Positions 8,827-52,358 are shown, counted from the first letter of the stretch. The stretch: 64,000 nt of DNA from an archaeon (GCA_043814055.1 JBDRKL010000006.1:1679-65678), one strand, 5' to 3'. Notes: a model not told the origin generated them from the sequence alone. Numbers and translations: made by a program.

Positions 8827-9473
8827 TTAAACTCCTTTAGCTTGTATTTTATATCGCTCAGGCTCCTTATAACGTGCTCGCCGTCCAGCCGGTTCTTCCT
8901 GTCAATCAGCAGCGCTTCAACTCCAACAGAAACCGCCGGGGTGTAATCGTGGCTCTCCATGTCCCCCACGTGCAGCAATTTTTCCGCAGGAATCTCCAAT
9001 TTCTCTAAAAACCTCTCATACGCTTCTGGAAAAACCTTGATGCTGTTGAAATGGCTCGGCGCTGAAACAATCTGGTCAAAGTATTTCTTAAGCCCAGCCC
9101 ACTTGAGCTTTATCTCTGCGAACTCAATGTCTGTATTAGTGAAAAGCGCCAGCTTGTAATCCTTCTTCAGCGCGTTAAGCACATCATCTGTCTCCGGGTA
9201 AACGTGCAGGTCCTCAAGCACTTCCTTCACGACCTCGCGCCAGTCCTGCTTCAACCCGAACCGCTCAAACCAGAACTCCTTCAAATACCAGCGCGTGTCC
9301 CTGCTCCCAATCTCGTCATAGTCCATCCAGCACGCTTTCTTCGCGTCATTGTATGAAATCTTGTGCGTCTCTGCGTAAATTCTTGGAACTACCTCGTGCC
9401 AAAGCTGGAGCTCAACGCTTCCAAGGTCTATCAGCGTGCCGTCAAGGTCAAAGCTTATCCATTCAATCCCCAT
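8823..9473 (-). CDS. HAD-superfamily hydrolase
   Basis: FDLDGTL motif I, FTN motif II, HVGD…HD motif IV. Confidence 0.9.
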   Translation of the reverse strand: MGIEWISFDLDGTLIDLGSVELQLWHEVVPRIYAETHKISYNDAKKACWMDYDEIGSRDTRWYLKEFWFERFGLKQDWREVVKEVLEDLHVYPETDDVLNALKKDYKLALFTNTDIEFAEIKLKWAGLKKYFDQIVSAPSHFNSIKVFPEAYERFLEKLEIPAEKLLHVGDMESHDYTPAVSVGVEALLIDRKNRLDGEHVIRSLSDIKYKLKEFK

Positions 9474-38083: not shown

Positions 38084-38656
38084 TTACTTATGATTCTGGA
38101 AACAGTCTCTGCAGTAAACCGGCTTGTTGCCTGATGGCTTGAACGGTACCTGGCACGATTTTCCGCACTCAGCGCATGTTGCGTCGTGCATTTCTCGTGG
38201 GCCTTGGCTGTATCCGCCGCCTCCGCCGCCGCTTCTATATCCGCCGCCTCCGCCGCCGCTTCTATATCCGCCGCCGCCTCCGCCGCTTCTATATCCGCCG
38301 CCGCCTCCGCCGCTTCTATATCCGCCGCTGCTTCCGCCGCCGCTTCTATATCCGCCGCTGCTTCCGCCGCCGCTCCTTCTTGGTGGCTTGCGCTTCTGGT
38401 AGCAGTCTCTGCAGTAAACCGGCTTTGTCTCATCCGGCTTGAAAGGGACTTCGCATTCTGCCCCACAGTCTGCGCAAACAGCTTTGTGCATGTCACGACC
38501 AGAGTCGTCTGTTGACGGTTTAGCTTTTTTAGTCTGCTCTACTTCTTCAGACTCTTCAGTTTCGTCTTCAGTCTGCTCTACTTCTTCGGAAGTTGTTTCT
38601 TCCTCATCTTTTATCTCATCCTGGGATTCATCCTCAGGCTTATTGTCTTCATCCAT
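38084..38656 (-). CDS. Tandem CxxC-x17-CxxC zinc-ribbon protein with acidic N-terminus and Gly/Tyr/Arg low-complexity linker
   Basis: MHKAVCADCGAECEVPFKP…PVYCRDC occurs twice; (RSGGGGGGY)n linker. Confidence 0.9.
   Translation of the reverse strand: MDEDNKPEDESQDEIKDEEETTSEEVEQTEDETEESEEVEQTKKAKPSTDDSGRDMHKAVCADCGAECEVPFKPDETKPVYCRDCYQKRKPPRRSGGGSSGGYRSGGGSSGGYRSGGGGGGYRSGGGGGGYRSGGGGGGYRSGGGGGGYSQGPREMHDATCAECGKSCQVPFKPSGNKPVYCRDCFQNHK
38211..38374. repeat. Coding tandem repeat of 27-30 nt (RSGGG[GG/SS]GGY), about 6 units
   Basis: Repeated …cttctatatccgccgc… units. Confidence 0.9.
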
Positions 38657-38820
38657 TATTTTTTTCACCTATTTTTTTTACTACACACAAAATCTCTTTC
38701 TATCGTTTAATACTTCGGTGTATCCATTCCGATGCTTGGCTGGGTATTTAATGGTTTTGATTTCAAAAGTAAGGGTGGTAGGTTAGCTGGGCTCACTGTT
38801 GGGGTGGAGGGTTAAGCCAA

Positions 38821-40086
38821 TTATGCTCCCAATGAAACATTATATTCACTCTCTGAAATCGCCTCTCCCACTTCACTGAATTCTTTTCTTGTTTTTTCAA
38901 GCTTGATTTCATCCACTCCAAATCTCTTCTCGTCTTCGCTTATTTTTCCCCTCAGCTCAGAAATCTCTGCCTCTAATTCCTTCTTGCGCTTGGAATACTC
39001 TGAATTCACCAAGTCATTTTTCTTGGCTTTTCTCTGCCCATCACGTTCAGCATGCTGTTTTATAAGAGCATCCAAATTATCCTTCAACCCGTGTTCTATG
39101 GAGATCAGCGCTTTTTCCTTCTCCTTGTCATCCAGCTGTATAGTTCCTTTTTCCAAAGCATCTTTTAATTTTTTAAGAAGTTCGTTCAGGTGCGGCCCCT
39201 CGTGAATTATTTCTCTTGAGTTTGCGATGCAGAGTTCAATATAGTCCATCAATTCTTTTTTCTCAAGCCCCTCCACAGACCTCTTGTATTTTCTAAGCGG
39301 TCTGGTTAATTGACCAATAATGTGGAGTACATTGCGCCCGATGTCCTCTTGTTTGGTCTGAATCTCCATTAGCCCTTTCTCAAGTCCCTCATATGTTACC
39401 TTCTCTTTAGAGGTATAGAGCGCTTGAAGCGCGTCCTCTTTCTTTTTCACGGCGACTTTAAGTTTTTCAATGTTCTTCTGGCGCAATGGTAGATTTGTAT
39501 CCAGTGGGACCATGGCATTTCTCAACTCACCATATCTAGAAAGCATCTCCAGCACTTCCTCATTCTTTTTAATCCCCTCGTTAGCCCCTTTTATCTTGTC
39601 AAGAAATTCATTTGATGCCAGGGACAGGTTTTGGAGGTTATTGCGCAACTCTTCAACTTCCTTGCTGAACCCAAACTTGACAAAGCGGAGGTATGTCTTC
39701 TCCAGTTTGTGTATGGTGTTTATGCAGCTGATAAATCTCCTGCTGGCCTCCACGCAGTCCTCGTAGTTATTCAGACTAAGGTCAAATATGAGGTCTATGT
39801 TGTGCGTAATTCCCTCCACATAGGACTTTTTGCTGTTCTTGAGTGTCTGGGCGAGCGGCTTGTGCATCGCTGGGTCAGGTTGAACAGCATTAACTTTGTC
39901 CGCCTCCTCCTTCAACCTTTCGCCCGTCTCTTTTATTCTATCATAAATTGACCCAAGCTCTGCTAACAGTTCTTCTCTAACCTTTTTATTTTCCTCATTC
40001 AAAAATTCAGTCAGTTCGGCTATGGTGAAAGTTTTGCTCTCCTGCCTCACTGTTTTTTCCTTGCCAAATCTTGAAAAGAATCTCAT
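38821..40086 (-). CDS. Coiled-coil hypothetical protein
   Basis: 421 aa, K/E-rich, 'LTRPLRKYKR' central motif. Confidence 0.7.
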   Translation of the reverse strand: MRFFSRFGKEKTVRQESKTFTIAELTEFLNEENKKVREELLAELGSIYDRIKETGERLKEEADKVNAVQPDPAMHKPLAQTLKNSKKSYVEGITHNIDLIFDLSLNNYEDCVEASRRFISCINTIHKLEKTYLRFVKFGFSKEVEELRNNLQNLSLASNEFLDKIKGANEGIKKNEEVLEMLSRYGELRNAMVPLDTNLPLRQKNIEKLKVAVKKKEDALQALYTSKEKVTYEGLEKGLMEIQTKQEDIGRNVLHIIGQLTRPLRKYKRSVEGLEKKELMDYIELCIANSREIIHEGPHLNELLKKLKDALEKGTIQLDDKEKEKALISIEHGLKDNLDALIKQHAERDGQRKAKKNDLVNSEYSKRKKELEAEISELRGKISEDEKRFGVDEIKLEKTRKEFSEVGEAISESEYNVSLGA

Positions 40087-40300
40087 TTTACTTATGTGTG
40101 CACTGTGGTTGAATTACAATGCGGTGGACGAGCCCCTTAATCGAAAAGGGGCGCATTAGTTACAAGAGTGGTTTAGGTTGAGGCTTTATTTATAAGTTGA
40201 GGCAGTAGTTTAGCGGGGCTGTGGTGTCGCTCTATGTTCCAGAGTACAGGGGTTACAAGGCACAGCAAAACTTAAATACTGCGTAGTACATTTGCAATAC

Positions 40301-40537
40301 ATGGAAAATGAAACTATTCAAGTACGCATGAATGGAACTCTTGTGAAGAAGATAGATGTTTGCGTAAAGCACGGTTTGTTTGACAACCGTTCAGAAGTTG
40401 TCAGGGATGCTGTGAGGCAAATGTTTTCTCCAGAGCTAAAGCCGGAAGTTCTTGCTGAATGCATGAAAATCTCTGAGGGAATGAGAAAAGGCAAGAAGAT
40501 GTCTTTGGAAGATTTAGAGAAAGAGTTATTGGAATGA
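40301..40537 (+). CDS. Ribbon-helix-helix antitoxin
   Basis: TIQVRM…NRSEVVRDAVR; overlaps the relE start (ATGA). Confidence 0.85.
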   Translation: MENETIQVRMNGTLVKKIDVCVKHGLFDNRSEVVRDAVRQMFSPELKPEVLAECMKISEGMRKGKKMSLEDLEKELLE

Positions 40538-40806
40538 GCTATTCTATTTCTTTGTCTGACAAGGCGACCAAGCAATTAAAAAAGCTGAACAAGGCTGTTG
40601 TCCGAAGAATCATAGACAAACTAAAAACACTATCCAGCGAGCCTTATTCAAAAACTCTACCGCTACAGGACTCTGAGTTCAGGCGGCTCAGAATCGGTGA
40701 CTGGAGGATAATTCTTGACATAGCCGACGATTTGAAAGAAGTTTTTGTGGTCCTTGTCGGCAAGCGGGAGAATATTTATGAAGAGCTGGAGCAGAGTGGT
40801 GGTTAA
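40534..40806 (+). CDS. relE: RelE/ParE family toxin
   Basis: YSISLSDKATKQLKKL…RRLRIGDWRII…VGKRENIY. Confidence 0.92.
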   Translation: MSYSISLSDKATKQLKKLNKAVVRRIIDKLKTLSSEPYSKTLPLQDSEFRRLRIGDWRIILDIADDLKEVFVVLVGKRENIYEELEQSGG

Positions 40807-40975
40807 CAAATGCGTGGTAAGGATGATTTTTTAAAAAGACAAAAGAAGATTTTAGAAACTGAGGAGTTTATGGGCTTAGATGATGTTTAAGAAAACATTT
40901 ATTAACATTGAGTGAGATACTTCACCTCTAACATATGGGGCTATGGTGTAACCCTTCTTTGAAAAATTGCAGATA

Positions 40976-42031
40976 TTAAAGAGAACCTGCAGCACCATCG
41001 GCTTTAGGTGCCATTGCTTTTTTGTAATTCTCCTGAAGCTCATATGATAACGTCTGAACCTTATCTTTGGTAATCGCAGAAATCAGCAGGACTTTCTCTT
41101 TCTTTGTCTTGAAAAAAGACAGGATTGCGTCCTGCTGCTCTTGTGACAAAAGGTCAGTTTTGTTGATGACAATCATGCTTGAAACCTTTAAAAGGTCATT
41201 GCTAAACTGCGCCATTTCCTTCTCTAATACCCCTTTTTGCGCCCATAGGTGCTGGGTCAGTTTTTTCCCAGCCAGCTCAAGCACGTCCTCCTCCGGGTAC
41301 AACACATAAACAATCAGCTGGCACCTTTGAAGGTGCTGGAGGAATTGAATCCCAAGACCCTTGCCGAGCGACGCGTCCTCAATCAGGCCAGGGATGTCCG
41401 CTATGACCAGATTGCCCTTCTTGTCATCGGTTTCCATGACCCCCAGGTTTGGTGATAATGTAGTGAAAGGGTAATTCGCAATCTTTGGCTTAGCCTTGGT
41501 CAGGACAGAAAGCAGGGTGCTTTTTCCAGCGTTCGGCAGGCCTGCCAGCCCGATTTGGGCCAAAACCTTGAGTTTCAGCTGCACGCTGATGGGCTTTGTC
41601 TTTTCCCCCTCAGTTGACTCTTTCGGATAGACATTAGTAGATGATCTGAAACACCAATTGCCCGTGCCTCCTTTGCCGCCGCGCGCGAGACAGAACCTCA
41701 TGCCAGGCTTGTCCAAATCCACGATAAGCCTGCCTGTGTCTGCGTTGTAAATCATTGTCCCGACAGGAATCTGGAGCGTTGTGTCCTCTGTCCTCTTGGC
41801 GTAGGCCCTCCCATTTTTGCCATTCGCACCATTTTTCGCAACTATGAGATGTCTGCCAAATAAGTCACTCAGGGTGTTCAGGTTGGTTGTGGTTTCAACA
41901 TAGATGGAGCCGCCTTGACCGCCGTTCCCGCCGTCAGGCCCGCATTTAGGGCGGTTCTTTTCCCTGCGGAAGCCGACCTGGCCATCTCCGCCATTACCTG
42001 CTTTTACAACAAAACTTGCCTCATCTATCAT
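40976..42031 (-). CDS. obgE: Bacterial-type Obg/CgtA GTPase
   Basis: Gly-rich Obg fold (KAGNGGDG…RREK…GPDGGNGGQGG), GLPNAGKS, ANYPFTT, DIPG, NKTD. Confidence 0.95.
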   Translation of the reverse strand: MIDEASFVVKAGNGGDGQVGFRREKNRPKCGPDGGNGGQGGSIYVETTTNLNTLSDLFGRHLIVAKNGANGKNGRAYAKRTEDTTLQIPVGTMIYNADTGRLIVDLDKPGMRFCLARGGKGGTGNWCFRSSTNVYPKESTEGEKTKPISVQLKLKVLAQIGLAGLPNAGKSTLLSVLTKAKPKIANYPFTTLSPNLGVMETDDKKGNLVIADIPGLIEDASLGKGLGIQFLQHLQRCQLIVYVLYPEEDVLELAGKKLTQHLWAQKGVLEKEMAQFSNDLLKVSSMIVINKTDLLSQEQQDAILSFFKTKKEKVLLISAITKDKVQTLSYELQENYKKAMAPKADGAAGSL

Positions 42032-42105
42032 ATTATGATTCCACTTAAACGATGCGGGGTGTAGTATTTAATCTTATCTGGCAGTGTCCGGCCTTAATTG
42101 AGGCT

Positions 42106-43206
42106 CTAGTAATCAACTTCTCTCGTCCTGTATTTTCTTATTTCTCTTCCTTGTTTTGCAGTGTCCTTCCATTTGGTTTTCTCTGCCCGTCTGACCATAT
42201 TCTTTTGTTTAATTGCGAGAACTTCAACTTCCTGTTTCAGTTTCAAATAATGTGCATATCGGCGGGGGTCAAGCTTTCCGGTATCAAGCGCTTCCTTGAC
42301 TGCACAGTCCGGTGCATTTTCATGGTTGCAGTCTGTGAATTTACACTGTTGGATAATCTCCTCAACATCTCTAAACATCTCACTAATACCCTCGCCTTTG
42401 GACCATAGTTGCATTTCCCTCACTCCAGGATTGTCTATAATCATCCCGCCTTTTGGCATCATAAACAGCTCACGATAGGCTGTAATGTGCCTTCCGTGAC
42501 CGTCGGTTTCCCTAACTTCTCCCACTTCCTGTCGGTCTACTCCGAGAAGCTGATTAAGAATCGTTGACTTGCCCACGCCTGATGACCCGAGAATAGCTAT
42601 GGTTTTCCCCTCTTCTAAATATTGGTCAAGCGCATCCAATCCTTGATTTAGTTTCGCGCTCAAGATATGCACTGGAGCATTTTGAGCTATCTTTTTCACT
42701 TCCTCACCTCTTTCCTCTGGGTTATCACAAAGGTCAGATTTATTCAATATTACAACTGGTTTTGACTTGCTCTCTGATACCAAAGTAAGATATCTTTCAA
42801 TTCTTTGGATGTTGAACTCATTATCAAGGCCTGCAACAATCCAAACCATATCCACATTTGCGACTAGGATTTGTTCTTCTGTAGTTACCCCAGCAACTTT
42901 TCTGGAGAATTTGTTCCGCCTTGGAAGAACTGTTTTAATGGTTCCTTCCTCGTTCGCAACCCCTTTCTTAATCGCTACCCAGTCGCCAACAACCGGATAA
43001 GCCCCTTTCTCAGTGGCATCAAATCTGAATTTCCCTGAAACTTTAACTTCGGTTTCCCCTGTTTCAGTGAGTGCAATGTAACCCTTTCGCTGGACTTTAA
43101 TTATGCGCCCTGGCACAAGTCCGTTCAGTTGGTATGGACTAAAGCTCTCTTCAAAGAATGAATCCCAGCCAATTTTTTTAAGGTCTATTTTAGCGGTGGT
43201 CATCAT
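42106..43206 (-). CDS. rsgA: Ribosome small subunit-dependent GTPase A (circularly permuted)
   Basis: VVGDWV, ANVD, NKSD, GSSGVGKST, GRH, DNPG, CKFTDCNHENAPDC zinc finger. Confidence 0.95.
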   Translation of the reverse strand: MMTTAKIDLKKIGWDSFFEESFSPYQLNGLVPGRIIKVQRKGYIALTETGETEVKVSGKFRFDATEKGAYPVVGDWVAIKKGVANEEGTIKTVLPRRNKFSRKVAGVTTEEQILVANVDMVWIVAGLDNEFNIQRIERYLTLVSESKSKPVVILNKSDLCDNPEERGEEVKKIAQNAPVHILSAKLNQGLDALDQYLEEGKTIAILGSSGVGKSTILNQLLGVDRQEVGEVRETDGHGRHITAYRELFMMPKGGMIIDNPGVREMQLWSKGEGISEMFRDVEEIIQQCKFTDCNHENAPDCAVKEALDTGKLDPRRYAHYLKLKQEVEVLAIKQKNMVRRAEKTKWKDTAKQGREIRKYRTREVDY

Positions 43207-43334
43207 GTTTCACCATTCTTTTTTTCATAACAATAATTAATGAGTTCTACTACTTCAATTCTTCTCCTCTGCCCCTCCGATGTATTTGGGTTACGAGGTA
43301 GGACTCATTTTTTGAATATTGGCTTAGGGCTACA

Positions 43335-44384
43335 CTATACCCAGCCCTTTCTCCTGAAATACATAAACATTGAGATGCCTATCATAGATACCAATACCCA
43401 CAATAGCGGGTAAGACCACTTCCAATGAAGCTCCGGCATGAAATCAAAGTTCATCCCGTACATCCCAGCCACAAATGTCAGCGGTATAAATATGGATGCG
43501 AATATGGTAAGCACTTTCATCACTTCATTCATCTTGTTGCTTATTGTTGAGAGGTAAAAATCAAGCAGTCCAGAAACCATGTCCCTGTATGACTCAATAG
43601 TGTCTATGACTTGTATGGTGTGCTCGTAGAGATCCCTGAGATAGGCCTCAGTTGATTTCTTCACAAGCTTTGATTCTGCGCGCTGAAGATTGCTTATCAC
43701 TTCCCTGAGCGGCCAGACAGACTTGCGGAGCTCTATGAGCTCGCGCTTCATGCTGTATACGTTGTTTAAAACCTCGCTTGTTGGGTTGTCAAGTATGTTC
43801 TGCTCCAGCGATTCTATTTTGTCCCCCACCTTCTCAAGCAGAATAAAGTAATTGTCCACGATGGCGTCCATCAGGGCGTAGGCGAGGTAATCGCTGCCCA
43901 TCTTTCTTATGCGTCCTTTTCCGCTTCGTATCCTCTGCCTAACAGGGTCAAACACATCGCCCTCGTGCTCCTGGAATGAAATAACAAAATTCTTGCCAAG
44001 CACGATGCTCACTTGCTCATTGCTAATCTCGTGTTTTTTCTCGTCAAATTGGAGCATCTTCAGAGCCATGAAAATGTAGGAGTCAAAGTCCTCAAACTTG
44101 GGCCTCTGGTGCGTGTTTGCGATATCCTCAAGAACTAGCGGATGCACATCAAAATGTTTGCCAAGTTTTTCAAGAATTTCCACGTTGTGAACGCCTGTAA
44201 CATTCATCCACGTTACAGTTGGCTTTTTCTTGAACGGGAAGCAGTCCTCTACTTTACTGGCGGGTTTCTCCTCAAGATTTGTTTCTTTGTAATCAATTAT
44301 GTCTATCTTGACTTCAGCTTCCTTCTCTTTCCCAACATACACAACTGACCCTGGGGACATCCCAGGCTTTTTAGTTTTTGCCAT
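43335..44384 (-). CDS. corA: Second CorA Mg2+/Co2+ transporter
   Basis: HPLVLED, QRPK, AGMYGMNF, MPEL; start MAKTKKPG at 44384. Confidence 0.95.
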   Translation of the reverse strand: MAKTKKPGMSPGSVVYVGKEKEAEVKIDIIDYKETNLEEKPASKVEDCFPFKKKPTVTWMNVTGVHNVEILEKLGKHFDVHPLVLEDIANTHQRPKFEDFDSYIFMALKMLQFDEKKHEISNEQVSIVLGKNFVISFQEHEGDVFDPVRQRIRSGKGRIRKMGSDYLAYALMDAIVDNYFILLEKVGDKIESLEQNILDNPTSEVLNNVYSMKRELIELRKSVWPLREVISNLQRAESKLVKKSTEAYLRDLYEHTIQVIDTIESYRDMVSGLLDFYLSTISNKMNEVMKVLTIFASIFIPLTFVAGMYGMNFDFMPELHWKWSYPLLWVLVSMIGISMFMYFRRKGWV

Positions 44385-44711
44385 CTCCAAGCTTGGTACT
44401 CTGAGTTGGTTTATAAAAGTATGTTTGCCTGCTTTACAAAAGTTTATTACGCCGGCAAACTCCGGCGGCACGTTTGGCTGCATTCGCTCACTTTGTTCGC
44501 GAAACAGCCATATTTAGATTTTTGAAAACCTTTATTAATCTTGGATTAGATACTTCATTCTTACAATTGGTTACTGAATGTCCCACAGCCCGCCGTCAAA
44601 TAAATAACGGGGCTATGGTGCAACCTACCTTCTCTGCGGTGGTACACAACGCGAATTTTGCAAAGATATTTAATCAGATATTCTCCAACGTTTATTTTCT
44701 CACTAGAACAG

Positions 44712-45335
44712 TTATACACAATCGCAATACTTGCTAGCGCCTAGGTCTGTATGAAAAACTGTGCCAGTTGGGCATTCACATGTAGCAACTATGTATATGC
44801 CTACGACTGTAGGGTTATCAATACTCGCTGGTTTGCTGGGATCATTCAACTCGCCGCATCTTGCATTTGTCACGCAGGCATCTGGTTGCACATGATTGTT
44901 ATTATTGTCAGCAGCAGAATTCACAGGCAGATAGTATGTTCTGCACGCAGACCTCCCGCTAACATCCTTTACACAGACTTGGAAATTGCCGCCTGTTCCT
45001 GTTGGTGTGCCCTTCAATACACCATCAATGCCAAGAATAAGTCCCATTGGTGGAAATCCAACCCCTGAGCCGAGATAGAAAGTATAGGGGCCATTATTTC
45101 CTTGAGGGTCCAGAGAAGAAATCATATCATGAGAAAAATCAAGGCTGTATGGAACGCCTATAGTTGCTGGATAATCATTAAGTTTCCAAACTAAATCACC
45201 ACCAATGTGAGGAAGCTTGATGAATCCTGCCTGCGATCCTATCACTATACCAAATATAACTACAATAAGTATCCCAGGAATCCATGGGCTTTTTATAAGG
45301 CTTGGTTTTGATTTTGCTGGTTGTGTTTTTGCCAT
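44712..45335 (-). CDS. Membrane-anchored protein with a putative Ig domain and Cys-rich C-terminus
   Basis: N-terminal TM; 'GPYTF…GFPPMGLILGIDGVLKGTPT…FQVCVKD' He_PIG-like; C-terminal cysteines. Confidence 0.75.
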   Translation of the reverse strand: MAKTQPAKSKPSLIKSPWIPGILIVVIFGIVIGSQAGFIKLPHIGGDLVWKLNDYPATIGVPYSLDFSHDMISSLDPQGNNGPYTFYLGSGVGFPPMGLILGIDGVLKGTPTGTGGNFQVCVKDVSGRSACRTYYLPVNSAADNNNNHVQPDACVTNARCGELNDPSKPASIDNPTVVGIYIVATCECPTGTVFHTDLGASKYCDCV

Positions 45336-45668
45336 CTATAAGCTTGGTAATTTCTGTTGGTTTATAAAACTATGCTCAAAGTAAAATTAGGCTTAAGGAT
45401 AGTCGTATGACTTCTTCACAGACGTTTCTTTCTGCACTCCAAACATTTATTAATCTCGGATTAGATTACTCTCTGTTAACATTGGGGCTATGGTAAAACA
45501 CAGACCTTCCAATTGGTTACTGTGTTAACCACAGCCACTGTTAAATAATTGGGGCTATGGTGTAACCTTCTAAGCCAGGGTAGTGGGGTTTAAGGGTAGG
45601 GCTCACCACGCGATTTTGGCAAAATTTGAACTTTAACTTCGGTCAGAATGGTGGCTAGGAACTTAATA

Positions 45669-46703
45669 CTACATTAATCCAAATATGAACCCTGCTGTTG
45701 TTGAAAATACAATCACAAGTCCGATATACACAAGCGTTTGTTTATTGCCAAGTATTTTTCTTATTACGAGCATGTTCGGCAGGCTGAGGCTTGGACCGGC
45801 CAGTAACAAGGCTAGTGCAGGGCCTTTGCCCATCCCCAGTTTCATCAATTCTCCGATGATTGGAACTTCAGTTAGCGTAGCGAAGTACATGAGAGCTCCG
45901 AAGATTGAAGCGACAAAATTAGATGTTAGACTGTTACCTCCAAGGTATGCTTGGACTATCTCTTGGGGGAGCAGAACCTGTATCATGCCAGCTATGAACA
46001 CGCCAATTAATAGATAGGGCACTATCAGTTTTGTAATGCTCCAAGTTTCCTTTAACCAGTTGAGGTTATCCTGCTTAGTGAATTTTAATTTTAGTAAAAT
46101 CAATAGGAAAATAAGCAGCATACTAAAGCCCATTAATTTCAAAGTAAAACCGATTTGAAGCCCGTTAACAATCAATATTCCTACAAGGAGTGCAAAAAAT
46201 GACAAAACTGTAGTTTTTGATTTCTCGTGCCCCACAGGGGCAGAGAACACATCCCCTTTATTTTTTGTTTTTCTTTGGAACAAAAAGTGCATTATCAGTC
46301 CGATTACAATCGACAGTGAGATGGCAGCAACAGCCCTCGCAACCCCTAACTCAAAACCAAGTACATTTGCAGTGTAGATTATAGCGAGCAGGTTAATCGC
46401 AGGACCTGAGAAAAGAAACGTTATCGCAGGGCCTAGGCCTGCCCCCCTTTCTTTTATGCCCGCGAATAAGGGAAGGATTGTACAGGAGCAGACCGCAAGT
46501 ATTGCCCCGGAAACTGCAGCAACAGAGTAGGAAACGTGCTTTTTGGCATTAGGTCCAAGATACTTGAGAACAGATTCTTTTTTTAGGAAAACTGCAATTG
46601 CCCCTGCTATGAAAAATGCAGGGATGAGGCAGGTTATGACGTGGGCTGACAGGTATTCAGTTAGAGCAGTAGTTCCGGCAAAAACCAGCTCAGTTAGAAT
46701 CAC
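45669..46703 (-). CDS. ArsP-like permease (DUF318)
   Basis: CLIPAFFIAGAI, AVCSCTILPLF, GPAINLLA, YFATLTEVP, GPSLSLP. Confidence 0.88.
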   Translation of the reverse strand: MILTELVFAGTTALTEYLSAHVITCLIPAFFIAGAIAVFLKKESVLKYLGPNAKKHVSYSVAAVSGAILAVCSCTILPLFAGIKERGAGLGPAITFLFSGPAINLLAIIYTANVLGFELGVARAVAAISLSIVIGLIMHFLFQRKTKNKGDVFSAPVGHEKSKTTVLSFFALLVGILIVNGLQIGFTLKLMGFSMLLIFLLILLKLKFTKQDNLNWLKETWSITKLIVPYLLIGVFIAGMIQVLLPQEIVQAYLGGNSLTSNFVASIFGALMYFATLTEVPIIGELMKLGMGKGPALALLLAGPSLSLPNMLVIRKILGNKQTLVYIGLVIVFSTTAGFIFGLM

Positions 46704-46927
46704 TTAATCCACCCCTTTATTTCATCCACTGTAGGAATTCTGCCCTGTGCCTTTACTTCACCATCAATAACAATCGCAGGAGTCATCGTGACTCTTTCTA
46801 TTATTTTTGTGATGTCTGTGACCTTTTCTATCTCAACATTAACATCCAGTTCGCTTGCCGCCTGCTTGGCGTTTTCTTCGAGCTGTTTGCATTTGGTGCA
46901 GCCCGACCCAAGTATTTCTATTTTCAT
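46700..46927 (-). CDS. Small redox-active thioredoxin-like protein (MTH895/ArsE-like)
   Basis: MKIEILGSGCTKC…TPAIVIDGEVKAQGRIP. Confidence 0.9.
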   Translation of the reverse strand: MKIEILGSGCTKCKQLEENAKQAASELDVNVEIEKVTDITKIIERVTMTPAIVIDGEVKAQGRIPTVDEIKGWIK

Positions 46928-46941
46928 TTTTTATACTCCAT

Positions 46942-47652
46942 TTATATGTTTATTAATAGGGTATAGTAAACCCCTACGAAAATGAACACGACTGAGACTA
47001 TTCTCCGCATCCACTTGTCAAAAACCTGAACTTTGTCCATTATAACAGCGAGTTTCGAGACGCTGTACGTAAGCACGAACGAAACTATAATAACAGGCAG
47101 GCCAGTTCCAAGGGCAAATAATATAGGGATTAGCACACCATCACCTGTCGCCAGCGCGAGCGGTATGAGCATCCCAAAGAACAGCACTGCGCTGAACGGA
47201 CAGAACGCCATAGCAAAAATTACCCCGAGCAGGAAGCACCCCAGTAGCCCCTTGCTGAACAATTTCTCCTTCAGCAGATTGATACTCTCACTTCCTCTGA
47301 GGTTAGGGAGTTTAATCAAACCAGTCATTAGCACGCCTATAAGAATTAAGAAAGGTCCAAGTGCAGCTTCTCCATAGCGCTGGAGAAACAATGATACAGA
47401 CTGGGAACTTAGTCCTGCCCATACTATAAGTGACGCGATAGAGACATACGTAAGTGCCCTTCCAGTTGTATAAACCACTCCGGCGAGAAGAGTCCATCTT
47501 TTCTCACCAAGACGCTTGGATATGGCTGCTATCGCGGTGATATTCGTCGCCATTGGACAGGGACTTAGCGCAGTCATTAGTCCTATGAAAAAAGCCGCTA
47601 TTATGGCGATTTCGCTTGTACCCATTGCTTCCATGAAAGTCATTAATGTCAT
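46942..47652 (-). CDS. ArsG-like (DsbD/CcdA-fold) membrane protein
   Basis: SPCPMATN and AFCPFSA Cys motifs in TM helices. Confidence 0.8.
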   Translation of the reverse strand: MTLMTFMEAMGTSEIAIIAAFFIGLMTALSPCPMATNITAIAAISKRLGEKRWTLLAGVVYTTGRALTYVSIASLIVWAGLSSQSVSLFLQRYGEAALGPFLILIGVLMTGLIKLPNLRGSESINLLKEKLFSKGLLGCFLLGVIFAMAFCPFSAVLFFGMLIPLALATGDGVLIPILFALGTGLPVIIVSFVLTYSVSKLAVIMDKVQVFDKWMRRIVSVVFIFVGVYYTLLINI

Positions 47653-48149
47653 TCTAATTCACCTGCCAATTTTTGTTCAATTACACTCTTGAGATAGTTC
47701 ATGTAATCTGCCTTGTCGTTTATCTTATACCAGACGTTGGTGTTCTGCTCGGCATGAAAACCGTTCTCGTCATAGACACCAATCCATAATGAAGAGCCTG
47801 TTGCGCCGTACTTTTCTGCAAGCGCCGCATTCTCCGAAAGCTGGACGTTTACATGTCCGAATACTACTTTACCTGATTTCACCTCGTCGGCAAAGTACGT
47901 GTTGACAGTCTCTTCGGCGTATGCCCCAACAGTAATGCAGGAATAACATTGACGCGTCCCGTGGAAATGATATACTTCGATTTTTTCTACATTAGATGGG
48001 GGCAATTGGATTTTGGCTGTTTCTCCAGCAGTATCATTAACGCCAACATCAGAATCCGTTTTACCGTCGCCCACGCAACCAGAGCTAATCACTATTACTA
48101 CAAGTAAAACAAGAAGCACACCAAGCGGCTTAGCACTCATTTTTGTCAC
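47649..48149 (-). CDS. ArsF-like thioredoxin-fold lipoprotein
   Basis: Lipobox SSGC; YHFHGTRQCYSC. Confidence 0.75.
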   Translation of the reverse strand: MTKMSAKPLGVLLVLLVVIVISSGCVGDGKTDSDVGVNDTAGETAKIQLPPSNVEKIEVYHFHGTRQCYSCITVGAYAEETVNTYFADEVKSGKVVFGHVNVQLSENAALAEKYGATGSSLWIGVYDENGFHAEQNTNVWYKINDKADYMNYLKSVIEQKLAGELE

Positions 48150-48438
48150 TTCTCCTGCAAAGGCCTTTTACAGTTTTGCGCTTCGTGTAGCCAAGTGCCT
48201 TGAGTACATTGCAAACCCTAAAGTCGTTTATCTTGTAAAGTATTTTCTTGCCGTCTCTCCGTGATTCGAGGATGCCACAGTTCTCTAATTTTCCCAAGTG
48301 GATGGAAACTGTTGATTGTTTCCTCCTTGTGTGTGGGATTATTTCGCAGACACACTTTTCGCCGTCTAGGAGAAACTCGACGATTTTCAGCCTTGTTTCA
48401 TCTGCAAGGGCCTTTAGGATTTTGAGAGATTCCTTCAT
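48130..48438 (-). CDS. arsR: ArsR/SmtB transcriptional repressor
   Basis: KALADETRLKI, EKCVCEI, QSTVSIHL. Confidence 0.93.
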   Translation of the reverse strand: MKESLKILKALADETRLKIVEFLLDGEKCVCEIIPHTRRKQSTVSIHLGKLENCGILESRRDGKKILYKINDFRVCNVLKALGYTKRKTVKGLCRRSDKNEC

Positions 48439-48766
48439 AAAACATATTGACAAGTATCAATATATAAAGTTTTTCTAGCCCACTTCCCCTCCTCCAAACC
48501 TTTATTAATCTCTAACTAGATTACATGTATCTGCACTGTGTAACCCGGGAGCAAAGGTTTAAATACAATGAATGCGCTTTTCTCGAAACCGGTAAGCTAA
48601 GGTGCAAAAACATAAATTGGGGCTATGGTGTAAACCACGTCTAATGGTACTGTACACCACGCGAATTTTGCCAAGAATTGGACTGTAGCTCGGTTCACTT
48701 ACTGGCTTAGGGACTTAAGATTTTAGGTGAAAAACATTATAAAGAACCTTGTTTTAATTTTATCAT

Positions 48767-49261
48767 ATGAAAATACTTGTTTTCTTACACGGAACATCGA
48801 TTATGCATAAAAATGCCGAAGGACATAATCCAGAAGAGATAGCCAAACAAGTAATAGAGGGCGAGGAATCGGTTACAGATTATAGCTCATACATCCCGGT
48901 TGGAAACGCTGTTGAAAAACTTAAAACTTGGGAAACTCAAGGGGCAAAAATTTTGTATTTTAGTTCTCATAAAAAGTTCGAAGATGTTGAACAAGATAAA
49001 GCTGTTCTAAAAAGGCAGGGGTTCCCCAAAGGTTTGGTATATTATCGTAAAAATGATGAAGAATATCATACTGTTGTGGAGCGAATAAAACCAGATATAC
49101 TAGTAGAGGATGATGCCAAGTCCATTGGTGGGGATATGATTTCACCAACATTAAATCCAAAACTTGGAATAAAAATAATTGTTGTTAAAGAATTTGCTGG
49201 GATCGACAACCTTCCTGACGAGATTTCTGTTTTATCAAAAAATCATTCCCAAGCGACTTAG
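48767..49261 (+). CDS. HAD-like hypothetical protein
   Basis: KILVFLHGT…ILYFSS…ILVEDD degenerate HAD layout; AT-rich; own TATA (TTATAAA) upstream. Confidence 0.65.
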   Translation: MKILVFLHGTSIMHKNAEGHNPEEIAKQVIEGEESVTDYSSYIPVGNAVEKLKTWETQGAKILYFSSHKKFEDVEQDKAVLKRQGFPKGLVYYRKNDEEYHTVVERIKPDILVEDDAKSIGGDMISPTLNPKLGIKIIVVKEFAGIDNLPDEISVLSKNHSQAT

Positions 49262-49307
49262 GGGCAGTCCTACAGCTGACGCGCGGACTTTTCTTTCTCT
49301 CGTTTAC

Positions 49308-49350
49308 AAACCTTTATTAATCTCGAATTAGATTACTCTCTGCTAACATC
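49308..49350 (+). promoter_or_regulatory. tRNA-Trp promoter (BRE/TATA)
   Basis: AAACC-TTTATTAA roughly 30-40 nt upstream of the tRNA; the block is repeated four more times upstream. Confidence 0.8.
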
Positions 49351-49619
49351 GGGGCTATGGTGTAACCTGGGAGCATAAGTGGCTCCAGTCAGCCGAGAAA
49401 TCGGCTGGCGCTTTGTGCTGCATTCGGCTTCGCCGAAACAGCACGGCTCGCACGAACCCGCAACAGCGGGTTGTGCAACACGCTTCGCGTGTTTGCACGC
49501 TCGCGCGTGCTCGCTTGGGCGCCAAGATTGGAGCTTTGACCCTTCGGGGGATGATAAAGTACAAAGCTCACAGTGGTAGAAACCACTAGGCCAGGGTTCA
49601 AATCCCTGTGGCCCCACCA
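49351..49619 (+). tRNA. tRNA-Trp(CCA) with a 193-nt intron at 37/38 (49389-49581); 3' CCA encoded
   Basis: Acceptor GGGGCTA/TGGCCCC; anticodon arm AGTGG-CT-CCA-G|A-CCACT; T arm CAGGG-TTCAAAT-CCCTG; ACCA end. Confidence 0.95.
49528..49555 (+). ncRNA. Intronic box C'/D' guide for Cm34 of tRNA-Trp
   Basis: TGGAGC is complementary to GCUCCA; D' TTGA at 49536-49539 places the +5 nt opposite C34; CCC-TTCG-GGG; C' GGGATGA. Confidence 0.7.
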
Positions 49620-49642
49620 CAACCTTTTTTAAAAAAAGGTTG
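49620..49642 (+). terminator. Palindromic oligo-T terminator after tRNA-Trp
   Basis: CAACCTTTTTT-A-AAAAAAGGTTG. Confidence 0.65.
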
Positions 49643-49697
49643 ATCAAAAATCAGGGGCGTTCACTCACTTCGTTCATGAAGCCCCACTCTTATTCAT

Positions 49698-52358
49698 ATG
49701 GATCATAAAAAAATCGAAGCCAAATGGCAGAAAGCCTGGGCTGAGAAAAAGGCCTTCCAAGTAAAAGAAGACCCCAAAAAAGAAAAATTCTATGTTCTTG
49801 AGATGTTTTCCTATCCCAGCGGCAAGGCGCACATGGGTCACGTTCGCAATTACTCAATCGGCGACGCATACGCCCGCTACAAGCGAATGAGCGGCTTCAA
49901 CGTGCTTTACCCAATGGGGTTTGACGCTTTCGGCCTCCCTGCAGAAAACGCAGCCATCCAGAACAAGACGCATCCCAAAACCTGGACCGAGCAGAGTATG
50001 GCGGACATGACCAAGCAGTTCAAAGCGCTTGGATTAAGCTATGACTGGGACCGCTCAGTTGTAACTTGCTACCCTGAATACTACAAGTGGAACCAACTCA
50101 TTTTCCTCAAAATGCTTGAGCGCGGTCTCGCATACCGCAAAGCTTCGCCTATAAATTGGTGCCCGAAGTGCAACACGGTCCTGGCAAATGAGCAAGTTGA
50201 AAATGGCAAGTGCTGGCGCTGCAAGGCAGCAGTTGAGCTGAAAAATCTTGAGCAGTGGCTGCTCAAAATCACAGATTACGCTGACGAACTTTTGGAATCA
50301 ATCGACGGGCTTGAATGGCCTGAGCAGGTTAAGACAATGCAGAGGAACTGGATTGGCAAAAGTTCAGGAACTGTGTTCAAGTTCAAAGTGAAGGACGTTG
50401 ACTTAACGCTTGAGACCTACACAACCAGACCGGACACAATGTTCGGCATAACTTTCCTTGTCCTCCCGCCGGAAAGTCCGCATATTGAAACGCTTGTGAA
50501 GGACACAAAGCACGAGGAAGAAGTGATGGAGTTCGTGAAGAAAGCTGTGAAAGTCTCTGCAATGGACCGCACAGACGAGACAAAACCAAAGAACGGCGTG
50601 TACACAGGAAGGAATTTCATAGACCCAATTTCAAAAGAAGAATATCCGATTTACGTTACTGACTATGTCATAGCTGACTATGGAACCGGAGTTGTAATTG
50701 GAGTTCCGGCGCACGACCAGCGTGATTTTGAATTTGCAAAGAAGTATGACATCCCAATTAAAGTGGTTATAACGCCTGAAAACCACGTGCTAGAAGCTGA
50801 TAAAATGACTCGGGCATTCATTGAAGAGGGCGTTTTGGTCAACTCAGGCGAGTTCGACGGCTGGAACAACCGCGAGGCAATGGATGCAATTTCAGAATGG
50901 GCCACAAAGCAGGGCTTTGCATACAAGTCAACGCAGTACAAACTCCGCGACTGGCTCATTTCAAGGCAGAGATACTGGGGAACCCCAATTCCAATCATAT
51001 ACTGCGACAAGTGCGGCGCAGTTCCTGTGCCTGAAAAGGATTTGCCAGTGAAGCTTCCTGAGGATGTTAAATTCACAGGCAAAGGAAATCCAATGCTCAC
51101 TTCAGACGCATTCGTGAACACAACCTGTCCAAAATGCAAAGGCAAGGCAAAGCGCGAAACCGATACTATGGACACGTTCATTGACAGCACGTGGTATTTC
51201 TACCGCTACTGCAGTCCTAAATTTGACAAAGGACCTTTTGACCCCAAGGCAGTTGAATACTGGCTCCCTGTTGACCAATACATCGGCGGAATTGAGCACG
51301 CAGTGATGCATTTGCTCTACGCGCGCTTCTGGACCAAAGCTTTGCGCGATTTGGGCTTCTGCAAAATTGACGAGCCTTTCAAGCGCCTGCTGTGCCAGGG
51401 AATGGTAATAAAAGACGGGGCAAAGATGAGCAAGAGCTTTGGTAACACAGTTGACCCGAATGAAATAATTGAGAAATACGGCGCGGACACTGCGCGCTGT
51501 TTTATCCTCTTCGCCGCTCTGCCTGAGAAGGAATTAGACTGGAGCGACCAGGGAGTTTTTGCAGTGCACAAATTCCTTTCCAAAGTCCACACGCTCTTTG
51601 AAACCGCAGAGTTCAAGAGCGGCAAAATCAACGTGAAGAAACTGCGCAGCAAGGACTTGTATGTGCTCTCCAGGGTGCATTCAACTGTGAAAAAGGTCAC
51701 AGAATGCATGGAATCCTTCCAAATGAACATAGCGCTTACAAGCGTGCTCAGTTTGGTCAATGACATCACTAAGTACAGCAAAGATTCGAATAAAGAAGTG
51801 ATGTACGAAGCACTCACAAACACCGCGCTGATGCTTTCCCCATTCGCGCCGCACCTTGCAGAAGAAATGTGGGCAAAGCTTGGTGAAAAAGATTTAGTTT
51901 CACTTGCAAAGTGGCCAAAGCCGAACAAGGATTACTTGGATGAGGTGATGGAGCTCGGCGAGCGCGTTGTGCAGGACACGTTCTCAGATGTGCGTGAAGT
52001 AATTAAGCTTATTGAGAAAGACCCTGCGATAATCACATTATTCATCGCACCGGAGTGGAAGTATGAAGTTTACAAAGGCGTTAAAGCTGGGAAAGAAATC
52101 AAGGACTTTATGGCTGATGCAAAGCTTAAGCCGTTCGGGAAAGAAATCGTTGGATATGTGCAGAAGCTTTTGAAAAAGAAGCACGAGCTCGCTGAGAAAA
52201 CGCTAAGCAGGGCGCAAGAACTGCAGTTCTTTGAAGAGTCAAAAGCCCAGCTTGAGGAAGAATTGAAATGCACAGTTCAAGTTGTGAAGGCTGAGGATTC
52301 AGATGAGCCAAAAGCAAAGAGCGCAGATGTAATGAAACCAGGAGTGTTTGTTGAGTGA
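49698..52358 (+). CDS. leuS: Leucyl-tRNA synthetase (bacterial-type core)
   Basis: MFSYPSG-HMGH, GFDAFGLPAENAAI, TTRPDT editing motif, VPAHDQRD, DWLISRQRYWG, KMSKS. Confidence 0.97.
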   Translation: MDHKKIEAKWQKAWAEKKAFQVKEDPKKEKFYVLEMFSYPSGKAHMGHVRNYSIGDAYARYKRMSGFNVLYPMGFDAFGLPAENAAIQNKTHPKTWTEQSMADMTKQFKALGLSYDWDRSVVTCYPEYYKWNQLIFLKMLERGLAYRKASPINWCPKCNTVLANEQVENGKCWRCKAAVELKNLEQWLLKITDYADELLESIDGLEWPEQVKTMQRNWIGKSSGTVFKFKVKDVDLTLETYTTRPDTMFGITFLVLPPESPHIETLVKDTKHEEEVMEFVKKAVKVSAMDRTDETKPKNGVYTGRNFIDPISKEEYPIYVTDYVIADYGTGVVIGVPAHDQRDFEFAKKYDIPIKVVITPENHVLEADKMTRAFIEEGVLVNSGEFDGWNNREAMDAISEWATKQGFAYKSTQYKLRDWLISRQRYWGTPIPIIYCDKCGAVPVPEKDLPVKLPEDVKFTGKGNPMLTSDAFVNTTCPKCKGKAKRETDTMDTFIDSTWYFYRYCSPKFDKGPFDPKAVEYWLPVDQYIGGIEHAVMHLLYARFWTKALRDLGFCKIDEPFKRLLCQGMVIKDGAKMSKSFGNTVDPNEIIEKYGADTARCFILFAALPEKELDWSDQGVFAVHKFLSKVHTLFETAEFKSGKINVKKLRSKDLYVLSRVHSTVKKVTECMESFQMNIALTSVLSLVNDITKYSKDSNKEVMYEALTNTALMLSPFAPHLAEEMWAKLGEKDLVSLAKWPKPNKDYLDEVMELGERVVQDTFSDVREVIKLIEKDPAIITLFIAPEWKYEVYKGVKAGKEIKDFMADAKLKPFGKEIVGYVQKLLKKKHELAEKTLSRAQELQFFEESKAQLEEELKCTVQVVKAEDSDEPKAKSADVMKPGVFVE

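Follow-up and report, generated by a model that had tools for sequence, protein, structure and literature searches.

Copies of the tRNA-Trp promoter and 5' end delimit a compact gene islet upstream of tRNA-Trp in a small-genome archaeon

In a draft archaeal genome (G000), we studied a 64,000-nt stretch of contig C6 (C6:1679-65678; hereafter the window, with positions counted from its first letter) that carries an unusual islet directly upstream of the tRNA-Trp gene. Eight copies of the very start of this gene (termed cores: J0, J1, J2b, J3a, J3b, J4a, J4b and the live gene itself) bound seven units of 0.06-3.7 kb, two of which are 'empty' at 56 and 61 nt (45495-45550 and 48559-48618). The junction regions are 90-330 nt in length and non-coding, and several contain a copy of the tRNA-Trp promoter and leader; some also share a conserved right-hand arm, here called Y. 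The reading that we favour, tentatively and at a little under an even chance, is that non-autonomous units were inserted serially and site-specifically at the 5' end of tRNA-Trp, each renewing the promoter and 5' end of the gene, by a recombinase acting in trans. The junctions and the tRNA gene are listed below in order along the window.

40172-40227, + strand: J0, the most decayed copy of the tRNA-Trp start (GGGGCTGTGGTGT), after a TATA-like CTTTATTTATAA (12-mer search with one mismatch)
40893-40953, + strand: J1, a promoter/leader copy (30/43) and tRNA nt 1-17, with no Y arm
44441-44670, + strand: J2, a miniature element, a promoter copy, a 46-nt small unit, tRNA nt 1-18 (at 44609) and a Y arm
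45441-45550, + strand: J3a, the best promoter/leader copy (39/43) and tRNA nt 1-11, then a 56-nt 'empty' unit
45551-45660, + strand: J3b, tRNA nt 1-18 and a copy of approximately nt 43-55 (CTAAGCCAGGGT), then a Y arm
48496-48618, + strand: J4a, a promoter/leader copy (30/43) and a copy of tRNA nt 9-29 (48537-48557) with nt 1-8 deleted, then a 61-nt 'empty' unit
48619-48722, + strand: J4b, tRNA nt 1-15, then the conserved right-hand arm Y (..GTACACCACGCGAATTTTGCCAAG..)
49308-49350, + strand: J5, the working tRNA-Trp promoter (AAACCTTTATTAA, a block resembling a B recognition element and TATA box) and leader, with the same block before tRNA-Trp in the related genomes G002, G006 and G010
49351-49619, + strand: the live tRNA-Trp(CCA) gene (ARAGORN with introns allowed; orthologues in relatives; CCA encoded)

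G000 is a metagenome-assembled draft of 979,685 bp in 14 contigs and is 82% complete. The GTDB species genomes of its order (n=13) and phylum (n=17) are all 0.6-1.1 Mb, and the source is therefore a small-genome, DPANN-like archaeon. Its tRNA-Trp gene has a 193-nt intron after position 37 (approximately 49388-49580). At default settings ARAGORN reported no tRNA genes in the window, so this intron-bearing gene was missed; it was also missed by Rfam, which over 39500-50000 gave no family beyond a sub-threshold isrK match in the intron. The leucyl-tRNA synthetase (LeuRS) gene lies directly after tRNA-Trp, as it does in family f3.

When the window was searched with the first 18 nt of tRNA-Trp (GGGGCTATGGTGTAACCT) at up to three mismatches, five matches were found (40937, 44609, 45551, 48619 and 49351), all on the + strand, compared with 0.03 expected; none of 100 shuffled sequences reached five. 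The exact first 12 nt occur five times in the 14 contigs, each time at this locus, and with one mismatch allowed there are eight occurrences genome-wide, seven at the locus (adding 40215 and 45484) and one on contig C3. By an arithmetic estimate, a 12-mer of the J0 type with one mismatch is expected by chance approximately 0.02 times per 10 kb on one strand. All core copies are upstream of tRNA-Trp and on its strand. Identity to the tRNA ends at nt 6 in J0 (where 12 of the first 13 positions match), nt 17 in J1, nt 18 in J2b (with a mismatch at nt 13), nt 11 in J3a, nt 18 in J3b and nt 15 in J4b, while the J4a fragment at 48537-48557 matches tRNA nt 9-29 at 17 of 21 positions (counted by eye). 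An earlier, sequence-only reading of this DNA had described the core copies, a copy of tRNA nt 10-25 at 48538 and a break of identity in the D-arm. The searches bear out each of these, with the fragment extending to nt 9-29 at 48537-48557 and the identity ending in the D-loop/D-arm.

The promoter copies reported in that reading, including the 39/43 match at 45441, were likewise recovered when ungapped identity to the promoter/leader at 49308-49350 was counted (39/43 at 45441, 31/43 at 44526 and 30/43 at both 48496 and 40893). Besides these four copies and the reference, the only site genome-wide with at least 27/43 is an unrelated one on C13 (28/43); the similarity of the J0 promoter to the live promoter/leader is not significant (10/43). 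The sequence AAAAC(C/A)TTTATTAA and a similar leader precede tRNA-Trp in G002, G006 and G010 (family f3), and the block is absent before the other 39 predicted tRNA genes of G000. The repeated block is thus a copy of the tRNA-Trp gene's own promoter, conserved in other families of the order. J0 may be the original promoter and 5' end.

Repeat arrays can mislead assemblers, and in a metagenome-assembled draft such as this one (14 contigs, 82% complete) reads of several strains or organisms might be collapsed or chained at shared tRNA sequence, or the contig wrongly binned. The repeats here, 11-60 nt in length and 70-90% identical, are far below read length, and they lie inside a 90-kb contig with normal flanks (tRNA-Trp and then LeuRS, as in relatives). 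In addition, a separate assembly of the population of G006 reproduces the smaller array of that genome at 99.94%. We consider an artefact of this kind highly improbable.

The tRNA-Trp start was then compared among three sets of genomes: 41 relatives including G000, the 13 genomes of the order and the 17 of the phylum. Among the 41, more than one copy is present only in G000; in the order and phylum, a true second copy is found only in G000 and G006. Extra matches in G001, G005 and G008 were rejected as chance or as lying on another contig and strand. G006, from another family of the same order, has its extra copy 1.6 kb upstream of tRNA-Trp in what is a two-unit array: a promoter, leader and 16-nt core (GGGGATATGGCGTAAC) are followed by a Y-related arm, a minus-strand gene for an S-layer-like protein, and the promoter, leader and tRNA. 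When the G006 arm was aligned with those of J2b and J4b, the scores were reached by 0-1 of 1000 shuffles. Two further promoter/leader copies are present in G006, one of them before a B12-radical-SAM gene. In two members of the same genus as G006 (G002 and G010), the conserved flanks are present and the 3.3 kb of G006 are absent, a contrast of empty and occupied sites. Gene-bearing DNA has accordingly been inserted immediately 5' of tRNA-Trp. Compared over 44 nt with the native leader of G010 (by eye, in an alignment), the far leader copy of G006 is approximately 84% and the near copy approximately 73% identical; these values would fit, only modestly, an old copy lying far from the gene and a new copy near it, with the unit bringing a new promoter.

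The Y arm common to J2b, J3b and J4b contains ..GTACAC(C/A)ACGCGAATTTTGC.., and J3b and J4b align over approximately 80-100 nt. For the six pairs that can be formed from the arms of J2b, J3b, J4b and the G006 junction, the observed scores of five pairs were each reached by 0-1 of 1000 shuffles and that of the sixth pair by 17 of 1000; the J4b arm compared with J2b, J3b and G006 was never matched (0/1000). The copy of tRNA nt 43-55 in J3b is identical at 11 of 12 positions (18 of 2000 shuffles reach the score), and J3b looks like an internally deleted mini-tRNA-Trp. The small unit after J3a shows a weak resemblance to the tRNA 3' end (89 of 2000 shuffles), and when Y arms were tested by shuffling for derivation from the tRNA 3' end, no significant score was obtained for J2b, J4b or the G006 junction; a mini-tRNA origin of Y arms in general is put forward only as a hypothesis. 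The tRNA fragment in J4a is spelled AACCCGGGAGCA where the tRNA-Trp of G000 itself has AACCTGGGAGCA. As the CCCGGGAGCA spelling is found in the tRNA-Trp genes of G001, G005 and G008, which belong to other families, its presence suggests that the J4a DNA came from another organism.

Other parts of the junctions are also repeated. In J2, the miniature element (44441-44525) is followed by the promoter copy at 44526 (31/43), the small unit at 44563-44608, the core and the Y arm. This small unit is a relative of the 'empty' unit of J3a (CAATTGGTTACTG..CCACAGCC..AAATAA; repeat families D2 and D9). J2 and J3 have paralogous left sides (approximately 300 nt), and the starts of the neighbouring CorA gene (44374-44423) and Ig-like gene (45325-45374), comprising promoter, 5' untranslated region and first codons, are 86% identical over 50 nt (family D7). 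Because this shared side includes promoters of opposite-strand genes, the left arm of J2/J3 looks like a two-way promoter module. A target-site duplication of fixed length, as for a transposon or miniature inverted-repeat transposable element, was not found; the duplicated segment ranges from 11 to approximately 65 nt and its copies differ by 10-30%.

These junctions also bear on a process with no dedicated recombinase, in which foreign DNA, circular or linear, with a chance tRNA-Trp promoter, 5' end or decayed copy was taken up and integrated by the homologous recombination of the cell through 45-65 nt of homology, duplicating the homologous segment. Such a process would agree with a repeated segment of 55-65 nt (promoter, leader and core) that is similar over its full length and not merely in the core, with the varying end points of identity, with junctions that resemble whole, internally deleted tRNA copies and with the four recombinase families left unmatched in both array-carrying assemblies (see below). 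It leaves unexplained why a Y arm is conserved in two families, why the intact copy is always nearest LeuRS and why polarity is strict at 14 tRNA genes, and homologous recombination works poorly on stretches of only 45-65 nt that are 70-90% identical. We regard this process as quite unlikely.

The units between the junctions carry unrelated genes, as follows.

40292-40806, + strand: RHH antitoxin and ParE/RelE-type toxin
40976-44483, - strand: bacterial-type Obg (GTP1_OBG), RsgA and CorA
44712-45335, - strand: 207-aa secreted or membrane-anchored Ig-like (He_PIG) protein
45669-48453, - strand (all genes): ArsR, ArsF-family protein, DsbD_2 protein, thioredoxin and ArsP permease
48767-49261, + strand: 164-aa protein of the unit nearest the tRNA (weak LNS2/HAD-like match, E 0.004, below cut-off)

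This cargo agrees with that listed in the sequence-only reading, except that the HAD-like match is weak. Nine of the 12 cargo genes are on the strand opposite to that of the repeated promoter, and several have TATA-like promoters of their own. G+C content across the units ranges from 0.36 to 0.53 (0.467 for the contig) and is lowest, at 0.36-0.37, in the unit beside the tRNA. The 164-aa protein had no match in the 60 relatives searched with this query, RsgA had none in five relatives searched, ArsP relatives were found in three of five related genomes at only 24-28% identity, and CorA is 44-49% identical to its best matches in relatives. The Obg gene is of bacterial type, as its N-terminal domain is found in only three of 61 related archaeal genomes and, among 14 control genomes, in only the 10 bacteria. 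In G002 (C1; L110 7738-9078) and G010 (C6; L111 7233-8584), tRNA-Leu(GAG) is followed by a small insert and a decayed 3'-end copy of that tRNA, with the Obg gene directly after these.

If the repeats were instead of chromosomal origin, produced around tRNA-Trp by local duplication, gene conversion and rearrangement, the genes between them would be resident. The Obg gene does have a zf_Tbcl_2 gene as neighbour in G002 and G010 as well, and J2 and J3 are paralogous blocks of approximately 300 nt that include a shared gene start. Counting against such an origin are the lack of close counterparts in relatives for RsgA (0/5), the 164-aa protein (0/60) and ArsP (24-28%, 3/5), the insertion site of G006 that is empty in its two congeners, the foreign-type tRNA spelling in J4a and the uneven G+C content across units. 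We consider this origin very unlikely.

No recombinase lies in the array, as had been noted from sequence, and this now extends to the assembled genome. Searches with PF00589, PF16795, PF00239 and PF01867 gave no match above cut-off in the assembled 82% of the G000 genome, while the control genomes gave the expected matches. The best PF00589 match in G000 (E 0.014, 14.4 bits, below cut-off) is to a membrane-protein gene on C4 beside tRNA-Phe and was rejected; PF16795 had no match at E≤1 in G000, and the window yielded no integrase fragment at E≤1. A 421-aa open reading frame (ORF) beside J0 (38821-40086) was considered as a hidden recombinase and rejected, as it has no Pfam or NCBIfam match and reads as a coiled-coil protein. 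The search for a tyrosine recombinase, which the sequence-only reading had proposed, is thus in line with non-autonomous units. PF00589 is matched in seven of the 17 phylum genomes and in none of the seven genomes of families f1, f3 and f5, which include both array carriers, though these seven are only 75-86% complete and absence there is not proven. The 10 of 17 phylum genomes in which the match is missing include G001, which is 98% complete, and an XerA-type enzyme may be missing from several families of the phylum. In G007, of the same order, a 432-aa tyrosine-recombinase-like ORF adjoins tRNA-Gly.

The absence of a recombinase might also result from decay. The units would then be relics of once-autonomous integrative elements (pTN3-like or of another integrase family) that integrated serially and were later deleted down to cargo and attachment (att) sites, as in the accretion that gives rise to cis-mobilizable elements (CIMEs). 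Accretion followed by decay is a documented route to tandem arrays at tRNA genes in the sections consulted of PMC5704250 and 10.1101/2020.12.28.424599, and archaeal targeting of a tRNA 5' half with an element-supplied promoter exists according to those of PMC8371274. Moreover, the 'empty' units of 56-61 nt and the inserts of 60-250 nt at 13 other tRNA genes (see below) resemble deletion scars, the ORF beside tRNA-Gly in G007 is a tyrosine-recombinase-like sequence in the same order, and deletion is rapid in small genomes. Against this, the window has no integrase fragment and the array no non-coding DNA to spare, the units all have clean ends at shared arms, these arms are also those of a single-gene unit in G006, and PF00589 is unmatched in all seven genomes of families f1, f3 and f5. 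Non-coding DNA makes up approximately 1.5 of the 9.3 kb in the array (by summing over ORFs taken as genes), and because it is limited to the junctions and short gaps within operons, the array would leave no room for a decayed integrase. On balance we hold decay to be unlikely, while granting it real weight.

According to the reading that we favour, serial insertion by a trans-acting enzyme, the islet at 40.2-49.35 kb would have grown as small units were inserted, one after another, right at the start of tRNA-Trp. The attachment region of an incoming unit would consist of a copy of the tRNA-Trp promoter/leader, the core (the first 11-18 nt) and the right-hand Y arm, the last perhaps left over from a mini tRNA-Trp gene. 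Crossing over within the core would join the old chromosomal promoter and core to the Y arm of the unit on the far side, and would place the unit's own promoter, leader and core before the rest of the tRNA, so that the gene remains intact and expressed. Repetition would push older units, together with disused promoter and core copies, upstream, where they would decay; the promoter/leader of J5 would have been supplied by the last unit. Because the units encode no recombinase, we infer an enzyme acting in trans, which might be encoded by a virus or plasmid, by a partner cell or in the 18% of the genome that is not assembled. It is plausible that the newest unit is next to the tRNA, as proposed from sequence, because G+C content is lowest there and the most decayed copy is farthest away.

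Several observations weigh against this reading. First, no tyrosine recombinase, serine recombinase or Cas1 was detected in the 82%-complete genome, nor was a free circular form seen. Second, the units are not all one family, since the Y arm is missing at J0, J1 and J3a, and the end points of tRNA identity vary (nt 11, 15, 17 and 18, and approximately 29-30 for J4a), which a single precise crossover alone does not predict. Third, the 'units' of 56-61 nt are too small to have moved as circles and are more likely scars. Fourth, the Obg protein is 70% identical to those of G002 and G010, a conservation similar to that of LeuRS (64-65%), and a zf_Tbcl_2 gene lies 2.3-5.6 kb from Obg in G000 (2.3 kb) and in G002 and G010 (approximately 5 kb); from this conservation and the shared neighbour, the Obg unit may be old or even resident chromosomal DNA caught between att sites. 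Fifth, a metagenome contig from the G006 population (L050) is 99.94% identical to G006 over 12,143 nt and has the same structure, with no variation seen. Lastly, a pattern scan for the core followed by 15-45 nt and CACMACG gave 17 matches in a collection of genome contigs, none of them real and most in bacteria, and 17 in metagenome contigs, of which the only real one is the G006 population (L050); a profile of four core and Y junctions matched only its four training sequences at full length in the 17 phylum genomes. Two further searches were also negative: the 25 matches to the core 15-mer in viral contigs include none with the promoter block or a Y arm, and BLAST of J4 (171 nt) against the 17 phylum genomes returned only its own locus, the tRNA-Trp start in G002 and a 38-nt match on C4.

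Several proposals of the sequence-only reading can therefore be kept in part. Serial arrival of non-autonomous cassettes agrees with the native promoter copies, 5' insertion, shared arms and lack of a recombinase, and less well with an Obg unit that may be old chromosomal DNA. The promoter and core copies said to define units of approximately 0.7-3.7 kb are real, but there are eight cores, two units of 56-61 nt and junctions resembling a mini-tRNA. The comparison of the locus across relatives revealed an occupied site in G006 and empty sites in G002 and G010, with a single structure in the G006 population, and the scan of other archaea for repeated tRNA 5' ends added the array of G006 and no further copy in the collections scanned.

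A tRNA 5' end is also the target of the pTN3-like (SSV-type, 'suicidal') elements of Thermococcales. In the sections consulted of PMC8371274, their integrases use a site in the tRNA 5' half, the rebuilt tRNA is expressed from an element promoter and the integrases are called unique among those of archaea; to regard 5'-end regeneration as unprecedented is consequently too strong. As in the array, the attachment site is in the 5' part of the tRNA and an intact tRNA is rebuilt beside the element. In contrast, the elements described there are approximately 10-20 kb and carry an integrase split into int(N) and int(C) at the junctions, while the units here are 0.06-3.7 kb, the tRNA identity is only 11-18 nt (once approximately 29 nt) and so shorter than a 5' half, the promoter supplied is a copy of the tRNA's own and not that of an integrase, and no split SSV-type integrase is found (no PF00589 match above cut-off and none to PF16795 at E≤1), the junctions being non-coding. 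An element-borne tRNA promoter like that of pTN3-like elements is a candidate here, as the junction blocks are 30-39/43 identical to the live one and the near leader of G006 is more diverged.

CIMEs are, in the portion of PMC5704250 used here, stretches of integrase-less DNA between att sites that form tandem stacks at a tRNA gene, with the newest beside the intact end and the recombinase provided by another element. The array resembles them in that att sites are kept around DNA without integration genes (eight cores, seven units). CIMEs (the Streptococcus ICESt1/3 family and others) are bacterial, target the 3' end of a gene and are decayed integrative and conjugative or integrative and mobilizable elements, most often with a functional element next to them; the array has no such partner, and in it the 5' end and promoter are renewed. 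Tycheposons of Prochlorococcus are cargo-carrying and lie at a few tRNA genes, with older elements pushed inward and partial tRNAs scattered. They carry a tyrosine (or serine) recombinase and often replication genes, and use of a tRNA 5' end with promoter renewal is unreported in the passages drawn on (10.1101/2020.12.28.424599). In the Caldiarchaeum subterraneum tRNA-Thr(GGU) gene, a 1.8-kb element has left a 5' tRNA fragment upstream of the intact gene with a recombinase-bearing insert between them, and was linked to gene disruption and intron gain; the description in the part of PMC3293823 used here includes no array, promoter copies or cargo genes.

The sequence-only reading had called the array integron-like. 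Likenesses to integrons and to clusters of attC sites lacking an integrase (CALINs) are the short single-operon units of unrelated function, including a toxin-antitoxin pair, the recurrent site-like sequences and the lack of an integrase within the array, and integrons do exist in Archaea (sections consulted of the preprint 10.1101/2022.02.06.479319). All of the integron features tested fail, however: there is no IntI, attI or attC-like hairpin, the repeats are derived from a tRNA and its promoter, and most of the cargo (9/12 genes) points away from that promoter, so only an analogy remains. In integrons, promoterless cassettes face so as to be read from a shared promoter at attI, and each border has an attC site, an imperfect palindrome of 60-140 nt that forms a hairpin. 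Single-stranded DNA folds of five junctions had z-scores from -1.66 to +0.49, with 17-138 of 200 shuffles folding at least as well. Integrative mobile elements exploiting Xer (IMEX), such as CTX phage at dif, likewise lack their own recombinase, stack in tandem and regenerate their site, using XerC/D and dif of the host. Here no Xer-type enzyme was matched in G000, and the site is the start of a tRNA gene.

In the literature searched, a limited library, we found no description of promoter-regenerating arrays at a tRNA 5' end in DPANN-like archaea. What appears to be new is the combination: a gene's own promoter renewed each time, very small single-operon units, no integrase or remnant, and a lineage without a detectable tyrosine recombinase. 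Few ways of gaining genes are known for archaea with genomes as small as this, and here metal/arsenic-related, surface-protein, toxin-antitoxin and bacterial-type GTPase genes are stacked compactly at one tRNA gene. If the units move as small non-autonomous cassettes, they would amount to an archaeal equivalent of integrons or of Xer-dependent elements, with a tRNA promoter as its foundation, and their mobility would point to a further recombinase, possibly supplied by a virus or a host cell.

Copies of tRNA ends are not limited to tRNA-Trp. For each of the 40 predicted tRNA genes of G000, the first and last 14 nt were searched with one mismatch on the same strand within 12 kb. A 5' copy lies upstream of seven of the 40 (six after dropping one Ala/Ile neighbour pair with the same start) and a 3' copy downstream of nine (eight after dropping one copy 10.5 kb away in a coding region; this tRNA-Asp 14-mer lies within a 743-aa ORF and was taken as chance). 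Copies on the wrong side numbered one for the 5' end (the same Ala/Ile pair) and none for the 3' end, and reversed 14-mers gave none in the four classes. Polar end copies are therefore present at 14 of 40 tRNA genes. Genes lie between the copies only at tRNA-Trp; at the 13 others, a distance of 60-250 nt separates the copies from the gene, and the interval is occupied by G+C-rich hairpin modules. At tRNA-Glu(UUC) two such inserts are in tandem, and one contig end has three 90-nt repeats, each with the tRNA-Met 3' end. The end-copy loci, and the introns that share modules with inserts at tRNA flanks, are as follows.

C1:6737-7012: end-copy locus
C3:23733-24017: end-copy locus
C9:11346-11539: end-copy locus
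C9:50698-50949: end-copy locus
C10:28922-29169: end-copy locus
C10:117204-117551: end-copy locus
C10:135070-135414: end-copy locus
C12:18318-18570: end-copy locus
C12:37659-37868: end-copy locus
C12:132988-133180: end-copy locus
C12:152935-153209: end-copy locus
C4:126284-126389: tRNA-Gly intron sharing modules
C9:50736-50807: tRNA-Val intron sharing modules
C12:152975-153083: tRNA-Met intron sharing modules

Flank and intron sequences of approximately 22 tRNA genes are linked to one another by similarity in a single network. In one such link, the tRNA-Met intron opens with 44 nt that match the 44 nt right after tRNA-Ile (C10:83441-83484) at 95% identity, and approximately half of the genomic matches of these modules are within 300 nt of a tRNA gene. 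The tRNA-Trp intron is part of this pattern: in relatives it is 56-61 nt (families f3 and f5) or lacking, and in G001 and G005 it is 215-229 nt. The last ~55 nt of the G000 intron resemble the entire intron of relatives, and its first ~135 nt consist of G+C-rich modules that recur elsewhere in the genome, including near other tRNA genes. This sharing of modules between introns and inserts would fit the proposal that integrating elements seed tRNA introns, and, with polar tRNA-end copies at 14 of 40 genes, provides concrete material for that proposal of element disruption and intron seeding. Similar 3' inserts with a copied tRNA end occur at tRNA-Leu in G002 and at tRNA-Trp in G010 and G008, and the 3' side of tRNA-Trp is predicted to be used for insertion in relatives also. 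Judged from these comparisons, tRNA ends would be insertion sites throughout the order, with tRNA-Trp the sole place where inserts carry genes. A broader proposal, which we regard as doubtful, is that the lineage has a tRNA-end-directed gene-capture system without a resident integrase, in which a promoter-bearing mini-tRNA gene serves as attachment site and the enzyme is of a new kind or belongs to a partner organism. In such a system tRNA-Trp would be the cargo platform, and 13 other tRNA genes would bear scars of 60-250 nt from the same process, which would also contribute to the origin of archaeal tRNA introns, since some scar modules recur within tRNA introns.

A number of smaller observations were made at these and neighbouring sites. 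In G008 (L019, approximately 9290-9400), a ~40-nt copy of the tRNA-Trp 3' end and trailer lies approximately 40 nt downstream, and in G010 (L017, 10130-11140), approximately 1 kb with a copy of the T-arm/acceptor 3' end separates tRNA-Trp from LeuRS; by eye this insert has a putative repeat-protein gene, though the coordinates chosen for it gave no clean translation. The outer Y arm of J4b (48680-48717) is 87% identical over 38 nt to an intergenic sequence on the minus strand of C4 (C4:131467-131504). That site, which has no Rfam match, starts with nt 1-13 of tRNA-Phe, whose genuine gene is 8.6 kb away on the opposite strand. A related element that once sat at another tRNA gene may have left it as a relic junction.

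The miniature element of J2 is G+C-rich and starts with CGCCSGCAAAMTCSGGCGGC; it interrupts the TATA box of one of the tRNA-Trp promoter copies, with a TTTATTA on either side (44441-44525), and a like element is at the same position in G010 (L017, 9870-9955). Its place in the TATA box in both genomes, between these copies, suggests that it targets TATA boxes with target-site duplication. Adjoining the array, a minus-strand gene at 38084-38668 contains six tandem copies of a 27-nt repeat (38181-38372) that encode a Gly-rich stretch between two treble-clef zinc fingers (zf_Tbcl_2). Finally, a conserved motif with a short hairpin, GTGTCAACT..GC(W)AGAAGTT or ..GCAGTT, abuts the mature 5' end of approximately 8-10 tRNA genes of G000 (for example at C8:32558, C8:36238, C10:138406, C12:34923 and C13:17377) and has G+C-rich hairpins before it; the motif could represent a leader structure or the end of an element.

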